64,000 nucleotides of DNA from Alphaproteobacteria bacterium (GCA_009779745.1 WRDR01000006.1:3469-67468), one strand, 5' to 3'; numbered from the stretch's first letter, positions 5,247-50,858 are shown. Numbers and translations are program-made. The notes: generated by a model not told the origin, from the letters alone.

Positions 5247-5516
5247 ATATTCCACCTTCTTGCTGGAAGAGGAATACGTAGGCAACTCCTAACTCCTAAT
5301 TAAAATAAAGCTTGGATTCCCATAAACTATATGCTATCACCGCCCCTGTGTTTGACGCTGTTGTCAAACCAAGACTAAGACGTTTACCAAGCCGCAGCGC
5401 CCTGCTTTCAGCCTTGCCTGCTTAATATAAAAATGTCTTGTCCTACTTTAACCTCAAGAGAAAGCGAACAGGCGGCTGTATGCAGCTATGACCTGTCATA
5501 GAAAGAGAACAATAAA

Positions 5517-7256
5517 ATGGCTAAAAAAATTCCCCTGAAAACAAAAGATAATTCTAAAGATATTAAGAACAAAAGCGCATTCGCAGAAATGCTGGATCAG
5601 GCTTTCAACAAAGAAGGAAGTCTCGAGGGCAATGTCGTAAAAGGTCTTATAGTAGGCATTGACAAAGAACACGTTATTATTGATGTAGGTCTCAAGTCCG
5701 AAGGACGCATTCCATTACGCGAATTTTCCGTAGGCGGACAGCCTGCCGAACTAAAGGTAGGAGATACTGTTGACGTATTCCTCGATAGAATGGAAGGCCG
5801 TGACGGCGAGGCTGTTCTTTCCAGAGAAAAAGCAAAACGCGAAGAAAGCTGGGTCGTTCTGCAAAAGGCATTGGAAAAACAAGAACAAGTTGCGGGTATT
5901 ATTTTCGGCAAAGTCAAAGGCGGCTTTGTTGTTGATTTGGACGGAGCCACTGCATTCCTGCCGGGCTCTCAGGTTGACATCAGACCGGTAAGAGACGTAA
6001 CGCCGCTAATGGGAACGGCACAGCCCTTCCAGATTCTGAAAATGGATAGAATCCGTGGAAACATAGTTGTTTCGCGCAGAGCTGTTCTGGAAGAAAGCCG
6101 CGCTGAAGCCAGAACTGAACTGGTATCCAACCTCAAAGAAGGTCAGATACTGCAAGGTATTGTGAAAAACATCACTGATTACGGAGCGTTCGTGGATCTG
6201 GGCGGAGTAGACGGACTGCTGCACGTTACGGATATTGCATGGAAGCGCATCAACCACCCTTCCGAAATGCTTCAAATCGGACAGCCTATAAACGTTCAGG
6301 TTATCAAGTTCAACTCTGACAATCAGCGCATCAGTCTCGGCATGAAACAGCTCGAAGATGATCCGTGGAAGAACATAGAAGAAAGATTCCCTGCCGGTTC
6401 TAAGGCTAAAGGAAGAGTGACCAATATAACTGACTACGGAGCTTTCGTAGAGCTGGAAGCCGGCATAGAAGGACTCGTGCACGTGTCCGAGATGCTGTGG
6501 ACGAAGAAGAATCTGCCGCCTAATAAGATAGTCTCTCAGAGCCAAGAGGTCGAGGTTACTGTGTTGGAGATTGACGCTTCCAAGAGGAGAATCAGCCTCG
6601 GCATTAAGCAGTGCTTAGAGAATCCGTGGGCTAAGTTCAAAGAAACTCACAATGCCGGCGAAGTGCTTCAAGGCGAGATTCGCAATATTGCGGAGTTCGG
6701 TTTGTTTGTTGCGTTGTCTGAAGAGATAGACGGAATGCTGCATATGTCTGACTTGTCGTGGGAAGAGCCCGGCGAAGAAGCTATCAAGAAATATCAGAAA
6801 GGTCAGGTTGTCGAGTTCAAAATACTTGATATTGACAGCGAAAAAGAGCGCATAAGCCTTGGCATGAAGCAGCTCACCGAAGATCCTTACGAGAGCATAC
6901 AGGTTAACTTCAAGAAAGGCGATGTTGTAACTTGCACTATCAGTGCGATTAAAGACAACGGCATAGAAGTTGATTTGGGCGATGCTTCCGGCGGCTGGAA
7001 TGGGTTTATCAAGAAAGCTGATTTGGCGCGCGACAGATCTGAGCAGCGCACTGACCGTTTTGCAGTAGGCGAAAAGGTAGATGCGAAGGTCTTGAACTTG
7101 GAAAAGGCTTCGCGCAAAGTGAACTTGTCTATCAAGGCGAGAGAAGTTGATGAAGACAAGAAAGCTATGGTCGAGTACGGATCTTCTGATTCCGGAGCGA
7201 GCTTAGGAGATATTCTCGGCGCAGCTATCAAAAAGACTCAAAAGAAGGAAGAGTAG
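5517..7256 (+). CDS. rpsA: 30S ribosomal protein S1
   Basis: 579 aa with six S1 domains ('GIVKNITDYGAFVDLGGVDGLLHV' repeats). Confidence 0.95.
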   Translation: MAKKIPLKTKDNSKDIKNKSAFAEMLDQAFNKEGSLEGNVVKGLIVGIDKEHVIIDVGLKSEGRIPLREFSVGGQPAELKVGDTVDVFLDRMEGRDGEAVLSREKAKREESWVVLQKALEKQEQVAGIIFGKVKGGFVVDLDGATAFLPGSQVDIRPVRDVTPLMGTAQPFQILKMDRIRGNIVVSRRAVLEESRAEARTELVSNLKEGQILQGIVKNITDYGAFVDLGGVDGLLHVTDIAWKRINHPSEMLQIGQPINVQVIKFNSDNQRISLGMKQLEDDPWKNIEERFPAGSKAKGRVTNITDYGAFVELEAGIEGLVHVSEMLWTKKNLPPNKIVSQSQEVEVTVLEIDASKRRISLGIKQCLENPWAKFKETHNAGEVLQGEIRNIAEFGLFVALSEEIDGMLHMSDLSWEEPGEEAIKKYQKGQVVEFKILDIDSEKERISLGMKQLTEDPYESIQVNFKKGDVVTCTISAIKDNGIEVDLGDASGGWNGFIKKADLARDRSEQRTDRFAVGEKVDAKVLNLEKASRKVNLSIKAREVDEDKKAMVEYGSSDSGASLGDILGAAIKKTQKKEE

Positions 7257-7297
7257 GAAAAGAGTTGAGAGCGAAGCCCCGCCGTAGCTTTAGCGTA

Positions 7298-7336
7298 GGA
7301 GGGTGGAGTTGAGACATATTCTTAACTCCACCCTCC
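7298..7336. terminator. 13-bp perfect inverted repeat (GGAGGGTGGAGTT / AACTCCACCCTCC) between the convergent rpsA and ppiB genes. It belongs to the GTGGAGTT/AACTCCAC hairpin family and has no U-tract
   Basis: Seen in sequence. It sits at the convergent gene ends. Confidence 0.35.
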
Positions 7337-7348
7337 AAACTCAACACT

Positions 7349-49094: not shown

Positions 49095-49107
49095 TTTCCA
49101 TTTTCCA
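49073..49107. repeat. (TTTTCCA)x4 plus one degenerate unit at the 5' end of the 47838-49094 gene
   Basis: Counted directly. Confidence 0.85.
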
Positions 49108-49156
49108 TTTGTATGTTATAAGAGCTCTTGTGCAAACCTTTTTAAGATAGAAAATA

Positions 49157-50692
49157 ATGCTCTCCTCCTCCCTCACAGTCGCCTTCGAAGGAACCTCTGC
49201 TTTTACAATCAATGTTCAGGTGCTGGTTTCCAGCGGGAAAGCAGTAATGAACATAGTTGGTTTACCGGACAAGGCTGTTGGCGAAAGTAAAGAACGGGTG
49301 CGCGCAGCTCTATTATCTATGGGAGTAGATTTGCCGTCAATACATATTTCTGTGAATTTGGCACCTGCGGATGTCATTAAAGAGGGCACTCATTTTGACT
49401 TACCCATAGCGGTTGCATTGTTGGGAGCTTTGGGAGTCGTGCCTCAGGAGACTGTTTCGGAGTATTTATTTTTAGGCGAATTAGGCTTGGACGGAAAAAT
49501 ATCTCAAGTGTCCGGAGTTCTGCCTGCCGCCATACACGCTAAAAGTTTGAGCAAAGGCATAATCTGTCCTCCTAATAACAGCGCAGAGGCTTTATGGGCA
49601 AGCGGAATTTCTGTTCTGGCTCCTCCTTCTTTAAAGGCTCTGGTCAGGCATTTTAAGGGCGAAGATATTCTTGTGCCTCCGGAGCAGTCTTTGAAATTGT
49701 CAACAATGTCGTATCCTGATTTGAGCGATATTAAGGGACAGGAGACAGCAAAACGAGTCTTGGAAATCGCAGCCGCCGGCGGTCATAATCTTCTGATGAC
49801 AGGACCTCCGGGTTCCGGCAAAAGCATGTTAGCCTCAAGATTAATCGGAATACTTCCTCCTATGGAGCCGGAAGAGGCTTTGGAAGTGTCTATGATACAC
49901 TCTGTTTCCGGAATGCTGGGGGAAGGGGGCATAGTTCATCAAAGACCGTTCAGAGATCCGCATCATTCTGCGTCTCTGCCCGCTCTGATAGGAGGAGGAC
50001 AGAAAGCGCGCCCCGGAGAAGTTTCTCTTGCGCACAACGGAGTTTTGTTTCTGGACGAGCTGCCTGAATTCCAAAGGTCAGCACTGGAAGCACTAAGACA
50101 GCCTATAGAGAGCGGGAAAGCAGTTGTAGCAAGAGCTAATAATCATGTTACATATCCTGCCAGATTTCAGCTAATTGCCGCAATGAATCCTTGCCGCTGC
50201 GGGTACATGAATGATGCGAAAAGGTCATGCGGAAAAGCCCCGAAGTGCGCCATAGATTATCAGTCTAAAATTTCAGGACCTATCTTTGACAGAATAGATT
50301 GCCACATAGAAGTGCCTGCAGTGAGTGCTATGGATTTAGGGCTGCCTTCCAATGCGGAAAGCTCTAAGGATATAGCGGCAAGAGTGATAAGAGCTAGGAA
50401 GATACAAAAAGAACGGTATGCGGAGATAGCGAAAAAGCATAATATGTCCAAATCGCAGCTGCCGAGAACAAATGCACTGGCGGACGGCAAGCTGCTGGAA
50501 GAAGCGGTGGCTATAAATGACGATGCCAGAGCGGTTTTAGTAAAGGCAGTGGATACATTGCAGCTATCTGCCAGAGGGTATCATCGTATTTTGAGAGTGG
50601 CAAGAACGCTTGCGGACTTGGAAGGCAAAGACACAGTGACAGGGTTTCATGTGTCTGAGGTCGTTAGTTACAGACAAATAAGAGCATCTTAA
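49157..50692 (+). CDS. comM: Mg-chelatase-like AAA+ ATPase YifB/ComM
   Basis: Walker A 'GPPGSGKSM' and a Lon-like N-terminal domain in a 511 aa ORF. Confidence 0.85.
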   Translation: MLSSSLTVAFEGTSAFTINVQVLVSSGKAVMNIVGLPDKAVGESKERVRAALLSMGVDLPSIHISVNLAPADVIKEGTHFDLPIAVALLGALGVVPQETVSEYLFLGELGLDGKISQVSGVLPAAIHAKSLSKGIICPPNNSAEALWASGISVLAPPSLKALVRHFKGEDILVPPEQSLKLSTMSYPDLSDIKGQETAKRVLEIAAAGGHNLLMTGPPGSGKSMLASRLIGILPPMEPEEALEVSMIHSVSGMLGEGGIVHQRPFRDPHHSASLPALIGGGQKARPGEVSLAHNGVLFLDELPEFQRSALEALRQPIESGKAVVARANNHVTYPARFQLIAAMNPCRCGYMNDAKRSCGKAPKCAIDYQSKISGPIFDRIDCHIEVPAVSAMDLGLPSNAESSKDIAARVIRARKIQKERYAEIAKKHNMSKSQLPRTNALADGKLLEEAVAINDDARAVLVKAVDTLQLSARGYHRILRVARTLADLEGKDTVTGFHVSEVVSYRQIRAS

Positions 50693-50702
50693 AAGGAGCA
50701 TG

Positions 50703-50858
50703 GAGTGTTTAGAGTGGAATTGTTAGTGATTGGCGGTTGCTGTACCCCCATTTGTCATTCCCGCGAAGGCGGGAATAGGGCAACAAACAAAAAGACTCAA
50801 AACTTCGCAGAGCGAAGTTTTTCAATAACTCCACACTCCACACTCCACATTTCACACT
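50703..50858. repeat. MITE-like composite repeat, copy 4 (GGCGGTTGCTGTACCCCCA, TGTCATTCCCGCGAAGGCGGGAAT, AAAACTTCGCAGAGCGAAGTTTTT, (CCACACT)x3)
   Basis: Shares its core and flanks with the copies at 27422, 31452 and 39115. Confidence 0.75.

Follow-up and report, generated by a model that had tools for sequence, protein, structure and literature searches.

Heptanucleotide repeat arrays with a guanine-free strand at gene boundaries of an alphaproteobacterial genome segment

Tandemly repeated heptanucleotides are the commonest long simple sequence repeats (LSSRs) in many bacteria, and polymerase slippage has been proposed to produce them (Mrazek 2007, as reported in PMC4679880 and PMC4692102). 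Here, short arrays of 7-nt units are described in a stretch of 64,000 nucleotides from an alphaproteobacterium (GCA_009779745.1, WRDR01000006.1:3469-67468; ~44% G+C), which is called the window throughout and whose coordinates are counted from its first letter. As in known heptanucleotide LSSRs, the units are arranged head to tail, exceed what composition would give, prefer non-coding DNA and show a lineage-specific excess; the window arrays differ in belonging to an uncultured alphaproteobacterium and to new unit families. Three of their properties, namely a strand free of G, arrays abutting stop codons and a fixed polarity of inverted pairs with the purine-rich array first, were not found described in the LSSR and heptamer-repeat literature consulted, and a literature search on the unit sequences returned no relevant paper. 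The explanation favoured here, with a probability of roughly 0.6, is a lineage-specific bloom of heptanucleotide simple repeats that expanded locally, were kept at harmless sites and do not act as a switch.

The short tandemly repeated repetitive (STRR) sequences of the cyanobacteria Calothrix and Nostoc have the units CCCCAGT, TTGGTCA and CAACAGT. GGGGA(T/C)T repeats occur in Nostoc PCC 7120 (PMC4692102). Like these, the window carries one heptamer as short arrays at many intergenic sites, some of them in inverted pairs, but its units are ACTCCAC, ATTCTAC and ATTTTCC and its host is, by the NCBI label, an alphaproteobacterium and not a filamentous cyanobacterium. The GGGAATC-type repeats of Nostoc and Xanthomonas are G-rich and quadruplex-capable, whereas the window repeats have no G-runs. 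The TAACTGA repeats of Beggiatoaceae, some cyanobacteria and Bacteroidetes (MacGregor 2015, PMC4679880) resemble the window arrays in their 2-6 copies, their AACT core, their patchy distribution across phyla with no known transfer route and their few copies in open reading frames (ORFs). They lie mainly just 5' of start codons in forward orientation (PMC4679880), a placement that fits about 5 of 27 window arrays (10631, 16069, 20834, 49076 and 50827), whereas the window arrays are commonest just 3' of stop codons, with the purine-rich strand in the mRNA. Several unit families coexist in the window, unlike in the TAACTGA case, and the output of Tandem Repeats Finder (TRF) for the window contains no TAACTGA array, the nearest unit being TAACTCC. 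Because both units and hosts differ, the window arrays are not members of the STRR, Xanthomonas GGGAATC or TAACTGA families.

Small intergenic repeats that form hairpins, often between convergent genes and in mosaics, are represented by REP/BIME in enterobacteria and by dRS3/NIME in Neisseria. The window arrays share with them their small size, their position at gene ends and their hairpins. REP elements, however, are single imperfect palindromes, whereas the arrays consist of tandem 7-nt units. The phase-variable simple sequence repeats of Haemophilus, Neisseria and Moraxella are likewise tandem short units at gene starts, from which the window arrays differ by the absence of length variation, by their association with housekeeping genes and by their low copy number.

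A period of seven and a few related units

TRF reported 46 rows for the window, 14 of them with period 7 (2.3-6.6 copies, 76-100% matches) and at most five with any other period. On these 64 kb of genome, the 14 rows compare with a mean of 0.94 and a maximum of 4 in 100 dinucleotide-preserving shuffles; control DNA from other genomes, 1.33 Mb in total (80 Der loci of other bacteria, taken from the GTDB alignment matches listed), has 2.1 per 64 kb. A single period-scaled detection rule found 13 arrays at period 7, whereas periods 8-12 gave none; eight of the 13 are mostly intergenic, intergenic DNA making up 10% of the window. A preliminary description of this DNA had listed arrays of period 7 and had proposed autocorrelation as a check. 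All the arrays it listed were recovered, at its positions or a few bases off, and the neighbouring lpxD, der and pepP-like aminopeptidase genes are as it had them. The autocorrelation was clearly positive: intergenic identity at lag 7 was 0.317, compared with 0.286 at lags 6 and 8 and 0.274 +/- 0.005 in shuffled sequence (z = 8.2), with further peaks at lags 14 and 21. Coding DNA exhibited a 3-nt period only.

The arrays are built from a small set of related unit families lacking G on one strand. On the plus strand the units are composed almost entirely of A, C and T (ACTCCAC, AACTCCT, AACTCTC, ATTCCAC, ATTTCAC, ATTCTAC, ATTTTCC and CTCCTCT) and fall into the families ACTCCAC/AACTCCT/AACTCTC, ATTCTAC and ATTTTCC/ATTTCAC, which are separated mostly by C/T changes. 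One strand is free of G in 13 of the 14 period-7 arrays, compared with 29% in the control loci, a share close to the rough 25% expected for random heptamers. Different units can follow each other in phase inside one array: ATTCCTA-ATTTTCC-ATTTTCC-ATTCTAC at 41342-41372, five variants at 27497-27530 and three ACTCCAC followed by ATTTCAC at 50828-50859. ACTCCAC alone occurs 12 times on the plus strand of the 6.4 kb of intergenic DNA (0.34 expected) and three times inverted; the 57 kb of coding DNA contain a single copy. A further array of period 7, (TCTGGCA)n at 8547-8570, stands outside these families and is counted as unrelated because both its strands contain G and C. The preliminary description had spoken of many different, varied unit sequences, a view that these families do not sustain. 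Its proposal of one common cause is borne out as far as the related units, the G-free strand and the in-phase mixing of units are concerned, but not in the form of promoter and terminator spacing or of active slippage.

Gene boundaries, hairpins and arrays within genes

The arrays cluster at gene boundaries, and inverted pairs of them form hairpins. In a position table of 27 arrays or half-arrays, whose class counts were made by hand, the commonest class (~15/27) lies 3' of a stop codon and is purine-rich in the mRNA sense. About 11 of the 27 start within 0-6 nt 3' of the stop codon, again with the purine-rich strand in the mRNA; examples are those at the der, TrbI-like, secA, PBP2, mreC, rho, autotransporter, purA and RadC-like genes. 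Single arrays are placed on the plus strand in the following, unless the minus strand is named, and inverted pairs carry no strand. Behind der, an AACTCTC/ACTCCAC array (16152-16187, read as GAGAGTGGAGAGTT in the mRNA) starts 1 nt from the stop codon, and GTGTGGAGTT starts 3 nt 3' of the rho stop (37335-37344, minus strand). ACTCCACACTTT at 38220-38231 starts 1 nt 3' of the stop of a kinase/pyrophosphorylase gene, while ATTTTCC ATTTTCC ATTCTAC ATTTT (41349-41374), which combines units of two types in one phase, directly adjoins the stop codon of the autotransporter gene. The array AACTCCAC (ACTCCAC) ACTTATA ACTCCTA ATTCCTA GTCCCTA, in phase throughout, extends over the stop and the final codons of mreC, encoding ...NEELGTRN* (27497-27530). 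TTTTCAC TTTCCGC TTTTCAC at 54672-54695 abuts the stop of a minus-strand gene. At 55204-55222, AACTTCACACTCCACACTT starts 4 nt 3' of the stop of the RadC-like gene and is 96% identical to 39211-39233, where (ACTCCAC) x2.4 (39211-39229) lies between the stop of an EptA-like gene and a terminator-like hairpin at 39183-39205. ATTCTAC ATTTCAC starts 4 nt 3' of a further stop codon (58673-58688), and (AACTCCT) x2.3 at 5284-5299 is situated 37 nt 3' of the stop of the upstream plus-strand gene and 217 nt 5' of rpsA. Degenerate members comprise ATTTCC/ATTTTCA/ACTTTCC units starting 4 nt from tRNA-Leu (44179-44211), a weak TTCCCC/TTTTGTC/CTTTCCG array starting 9 nt 3' of the dnaG stop (52725-52750) and the period-7 units TTTCCGC TTTTCAC TTTCCGC at 59692-59717.

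A few arrays end near start codons. Upstream of lpxD, (TACATTC) x5.6 at 10631-10669 is preceded by an inverted leader TGTAGAAT, with an inverted GTAGAAT at 10614-10620, and the whole element (10613-10669) ends 11 nt 5' of the start codon. A degenerate TACATTC-type array with GAATGTA units (16069-16118, minus strand) ends 2 nt 5' of the aminopeptidase start, and (ACTCCAC) x4.6 with the last unit ATTTCAC (50827-50859) lies 3' of a terminator-like hairpin and 20 nt 5' of the dnaG start. Positions such as 10631, 16069 and 50827 are what would be expected of operator sites for a DNA-binding regulator or of spacers that set promoter geometry, and heptamer repeats upstream of recF and recO of Nostoc altered reporter output in one preprint (10.1101/2022.06.06.494920). 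The preliminary description had likewise proposed helical-phase or spacing modulation of promoters and terminators. Seven base pairs are, however, not the helical repeat, and contiguous units would place successive sites on different faces of the helix; moreover, most arrays abut or follow stop codons, lie between convergent genes or are inside coding sequence, and no association with promoter-like hexamers was evident at 37000-56000, the part scanned. An operator or spacer function is thus very unlikely.

Four inverted pairs in the window form predicted hairpins. One of them, GGAGGGTGGAGTTGAGA / TCTTAACTCCACCCTCC at 7298-7336, lies between the convergent rpsA and peptidyl-prolyl isomerase genes, and computed folding of 7290-7350 gave -32.4 kcal/mol (z = -8.3). 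TGTGAAATTTGAAAT / ATTTCAAATTTCACA at 25013-25058 separates the convergent secA and PBP2 genes (-22.5 kcal/mol for 25005-25065), and GTGTGGAGTT followed by ATTCCACACTCCAAACTCCACACTCC at 20808-20857 is found directly 3' of the stop of the TrbI/DotG-like gene. Only on the sense strand do GUGGAGU and AUUCUAC of the der-aminopeptidase spacer pair, with the help of G-U pairs (-30.3 kcal/mol, z = -3.4). The preliminary description had taken inverted pairs for terminator-like hairpins. Strong hairpins they are, but those at 7298-7336 and 25013-25058 have no T-run, unlike intrinsic (Rho-independent) terminators, and the terminator-like hairpins of the window are separate repeated elements beside the arrays. 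These have the form AAAACTTCGC-NNN-GCGAAGTTTT and occur in three copies (31517-31540, 39183-39205 and 50799-50821) with identical stems and different loops; they could act in both directions, and two of the three adjoin ACTCCAC arrays.

A second repeated element, the REP-like palindrome TGTCATTCCCGCGAAGGCGGGAAT, is present in both orientations at 12418-12441, 27432-27487, 31454-31488, 39129-39164, 50724-50779 and 52690-52713, the copies having up to 56 nt in common. It presumably resembles dRS3 of Neisseria (ATTCCC-N8-GGGAAT) and is separate from the arrays. In the nearest relative the palindrome (~L006 4543-4564) reads CACTCCTGCCTTCGCAGGAGTG, with the loop kept and both arms altered. One copy is traversed by a public gene call of 165 aa (27009..27506), which is probably spurious; a better candidate for the real gene, by position a putative MreD, is the ORF that comes directly after mreC (26909..27412).

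Five arrays are located in coding sequence, every one of them in frame: within RsmG, within an aspartate racemase, at the C-terminus of MreC and at two N-termini. The 30-nt array (TTTTCCA) x4.3 at 31958-31987, (TGGAAAA)4.3 in the sense of rsmG, encodes VENGKWKMEN just before DLGAGAGFP, the motif that binds S-adenosylmethionine. In comparison with ten homologues, these residues are an insertion. The closest relative, 67% identical, has ACAGGAAAAGAAC (GGAAAAG) alone at the site, as would fit expansion from a seed. (CTCCTCT) x5.6 at 62030-62068, 39 nt long and (AGAGGAG)n in the racemase gene, corresponds in position to 12 residues, ERREERGESERE, that are inserted in comparison with PDB 1JFL. The other two are TGGAAAA arrays that provide the start codon and the N-terminus of a protein. 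(TTTTCCA) x4.4 at 45679-45709 fills the spacer between purA and a DUF1036 gene, whose product begins with MENGKWK, and (TTTTCCA) x5.0 at 49076-49110 gives the MENGKW N-terminus of a 418-aa protein; in both, the next residues are signal-peptide-like as judged by eye. Since an ATG recurs every 7 nt in TGGAAAA arrays, three units are enough for a start codon in all three frames.

The window otherwise contains mainly familiar genes, among them the housekeeping genes rpsA, lpxD, der, secA, mrdA, mreCD, mnmG, rsmG, parAB, rho, dnaG and purA. The pepP-like gene belongs to the M24 Xaa-Pro aminopeptidase family, scoring below the NCBIfam cut-offs, and in an Rfam scan of the window tRNA-Leu alone reached the gathering score. 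Dot/Icm-type (type IVB) secretion genes (DotH/IcmK, TrbI/DotG-like and DotM; 18242-20807 and 28517-29728) suggest, in an alphaproteobacterial metagenome-assembled genome (MAG), a host-associated lifestyle. The usual gene 3' of dnaG is rpoD; here, the region behind dnaG (52716-54367) holds instead a spacer of 290 nt and then an ORF of 453 aa, which contains Gly-rich repeats and has no match in Pfam. This ORF and the ORF at 4824-5246 have a 138-nt repeat in common (73% identity).

Invariance between samples and age of the arrays

The window is identical to its own contig of 155.5 kb, ENA ERZ27257304:k141_2346001. Contigs L001, L007 and L216 (the window's own contig) were excluded from the comparison between samples, for which ERZ27257295, JGI 3300010882, SRR10512951 and SRR5215144 served as independent assemblies; their identity to the window is 99.97-100%, and the alignments are free of gaps. 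The JGI identifiers presumably denote termite-gut samples. Nine arrays are identical in one to four of them: those at 16069 and 16152 in four (L002-L005), the pair at 20808-20857 in two (L002, L003), those at 49076 and 50827 in two (L008, L009) and those at 39211, 41349 and 45679 in one (L008). The comparison spans little evolutionary time, and an assembled consensus hides minority lengths. The contig of SRR10512950 (L010) starts within the 49076 array and spans no complete array. Because the same arrays recur in different samples, in assemblies from ENA, JGI and Logan, an assembly artefact was ruled out. Three Logan contigs (k=31) end within arrays (10641, 49082 and 62039) and one within the REP-like palindrome (50780). 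Such ends, to be expected when multi-copy repeats are assembled with k=31, are no evidence for variation. In practical terms, heptamer arrays fragment k=31 assemblies, and an ORF call that is probably spurious originates from the REP-like repeat nearby.

These data bear on whether the arrays are contingency loci, in which gain or loss of a unit would switch the adjacent genes. Perfect tandem repeats with a unit that is not a multiple of three, two of which (45679 and 49076) overlap start codons, would suit phase variation. Yet the arrays are invariant between samples and hence not phase-variable, their copy numbers are low (2-6 units) and the genes in or beside them are housekeeping genes (rsmG, mreC, lpxD, der, dnaG, purA). 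A change by one unit would destroy the protein in the case of rsmG or the racemase gene, and the TGGAAAA arrays, with an ATG in every frame, would buffer such a change and not switch expression. Phase variation is therefore largely excluded and can be given hardly any credence. A currently active slippage hotspot, a reading raised in the preliminary description, is not supported either, no length polymorphism having been found as far as the data reach.

A longer time scale is provided by the nearest relative. Among 5.8 billion proteins the closest Der is ~80-81% identical and the next ones ~60%; Der is alone in its 90%-identity cluster, and the protein collection holds no strain of intermediate divergence. 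A first scan of the GTDB species set for close relatives gave no match, and an alignment-based scan of GTDB yielded, among the matches listed, Der genes of at most 49% identity. The relative keeps the adjacency of der and the aminopeptidase gene, with a spacer of 84 nt that contains a REP-like palindrome and no array, and its mnmG-rsmG-parA-parB-dotM block has one weak (AGAAAAT)2.4 array only. Since the arrays are missing from the orthologous spacers of the relative, they are younger than the split from it.

Orientation, occurrence in other genomes and origin

According to a hand count from the position table, the G-free strand is the plus strand in 18 of 20 solitary window arrays, while coding DNA is evenly divided between the two strands. 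Polarity relative to the genes is 16 versus 9 in the window, which is not significant (three overlap cases were corrected by hand). The third-codon-position GC skew has no replication component (0.003), so a replication-strand cause of the bias was rejected. DnaA-box-like 9-mers are not enriched overall (17 versus 13 expected); five with one mismatch lie within 1.5 kb at 34479-35969, where a 578-nt spacer of ~35% G+C is located 5' of rho and beside mnmG-rsmG-parA-parB. This region may be oriC, in which case the arrays keep their orientation on either side of it. Beyond the window, the contig is free of period-7 arrays for a further 9.6 kb.

An exact scan of JGI metagenome contigs for the 18-mer AACTCCACACTCCACACT retrieved at least 120 contigs; none of those listed matches the window, and they span 28-65% G+C and have 31 period-7 rows per 64 kb. 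The TTTTCCA and TACATTC families of the window were not found in them. A striking case is Ga0082212_10015269 (L112, 1-9514), labelled a Clostridiales MAG by NCBI and having as named FabF relatives, at ~64% identity, Caproiciproducens and other Oscillospiraceae. In 9.5 kb around its fab operon it carries 12 period-7 arrays, among them (AGTGTGG)16.4, (TAACTCC)8.7 and (TCTTCTG)11.9, which bracket several of the junctions between fabH, fabD, an acyl carrier protein-like ORF and fabF. Of the arrays that co-occur in the metagenome contigs, 64% are without G on one strand, compared with 29% in the controls, and 30% contain GGAG or GAGG, compared with 10%. The 18-mer was found in only four viral contigs, and carriage by phage was ruled out accordingly. 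A different situation is encountered in contigs L094, L107, L125, L136, L140, L149, L151, L157, L161 and L162 (Ga0126342), which are filled with 40 to almost 400 CACTCCA-type copies, with similar long arrays in L176, L189 and L198; metagenome contigs with very many (>100) heptamer copies are probably eukaryotic satellite and not a bacterial phenomenon. Among the control loci, a Parvularculaceae MAG has an inverted pair GGGCAAT/CCCATTG with the G-rich member first (L034 5953-6092), and 21 kb of a Nitrosomonadales MAG contain five arrays of period 7 (L069 6694-9980).

The metagenome contigs also reveal a polarity. Within 60 nt 3' of stop codons, 39 arrays are purine-rich in the mRNA sense and 13 are G-free. 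Among neighbouring arrays of opposite orientation up to 200 nt apart, the purine-rich one comes first in 32 cases and second in 3, and in 32 of 34 distinct pairs after removal of near-duplicates from the metagenome contigs listed; the inverted pairs of the window follow the same order in 4 of 4. Being identical on both strands, the purine-first order is equivalent to purine-rich arrays after stops and G-free arrays before starts. The spacers of the pairs measure 6-198 nt and are unrelated between loci. For six co-directional pairs, computed folding made the sense strand the more stable in four and the less stable in two; the two window cases disagree, the der-aminopeptidase pair favouring sense and the 20808 pair antisense.

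Fixed pair polarity is what terminal inverted repeats would give, and the ACTCCAC-type arrays might accordingly be the arms of mobile palindromes similar to REP, REPIN or miniature inverted-repeat transposable elements (MITEs), their periodicity deriving from the terminal repeats. The hairpins at 7298-7336 and 20808-20843, which share a 14-nt core GGAGTTAAGAATAT, look like two copies of such an element, and arrays adjoin a REP-like palindrome and a terminator-like hairpin at 39129-39233 and 50745-50860. Unrelated pair spacers are not expected in this case, however, nor is the fact that most arrays are solitary and not palindromic. Where the REP-like palindrome is inverted, at 27432-27530, the neighbouring array retains its orientation, so that the two are independent. 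No transposase or RAYT was detected in gene calls and family scans of 74 kb, which covered part of the ORFs, and target-site duplications were not noticed either. When the flanks of the window arrays were compared by short-word BLAST with the 120 metagenome contigs listed, only chance matches resulted. A hairpin plus array in L112 resembles that of the window, and on the same flank comparison a composite mobile element spread across phyla was rejected. A REP- or MITE-like origin of the paired ACTCCAC arrays is possible, but as an account of the ACTCCAC-type arrays it appears improbable.

A selected role at the RNA level is likewise possible. The sequence pattern would suit a gene-boundary element in which purine-rich, Shine-Dalgarno-like arrays, with GGAG every 7 nt, follow stop codons and G-free, C-rich arrays precede the next gene; the two might pair into a long stem or be arranged to prevent the exposure of C-rich, G-free RNA, which is similar to a Rho loading site. 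The excess of purine-rich arrays behind stops, the order of the pairs in window and metagenome contigs, the frequency of GGAG/GAGG and the sense-specific folding of the der-aminopeptidase spacer are all consistent with it. On the other hand, the corresponding spacers of the nearest relative are without arrays, the folding shows no preference for the sense strand across pairs, and the solitary window arrays track the DNA strand and not the direction of the genes, which weakens a reading at the RNA level. Such a selected element is therefore considered unlikely. Similarly doubtful is the wider claim that GTGGAGT/ACTCCAC-type arrays are a polar gene-boundary element common to several phyla and not slippage debris, with the GGAG-bearing purine-rich array after the stop and the G-free C-rich array second, in the alphaproteobacterium as in the Clostridiales MAG and at 28-65% G+C. 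Loading of Rho, re-initiation by ribosomes or cutting of the long stem by RNase III could impose the polarity or make use of it. If this were true, the occurrence of an ACTCCAC-type unit across phyla would mean either horizontal spread or convergence on one RNA-level logic.

For the local bloom of simple repeats, the following course is proposed. A seed heptamer would expand locally when replication slips, or through a similar copying error with a preference for units of 7 nt. Arrays would survive only where they are harmless, that is, in spacers, at protein termini, in surface loops and at lengths divisible by three, and any effect would be incidental and exerted on RNA, through hairpins at 3' ends or unstructured leaders, without a switch. 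Several observations weigh against this explanation. No slippage event was observed directly, the arrays being invariant in all samples, and the 30-nt insertion consists of 7-nt units, whose stepwise growth passes through frameshifts. Neutral slippage predicts neither the same few units at many loci nor ACTCCAC in unrelated phyla, nor does it predict the 32 of 34 purine-first pairs and the 18 of 20 solitary arrays on the same strand. Plain slippage thus leaves the recurrence across phyla and the pair polarity unexplained.

Heptamer repeats have been known as the commonest long simple repeats in bacteria since 2007. The window adds a lineage beyond the usual examples and natural cases of arrays tolerated in housekeeping proteins. 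It also offers three regularities that can be tested across genomes: the G-free strand, the usually purine-rich mRNA after stop codons and the purine-first order of almost all inverted pairs. If these rules hold genome-wide, they would constrain the mechanism more tightly than the term slippage does and would point to transcription termination or translation.

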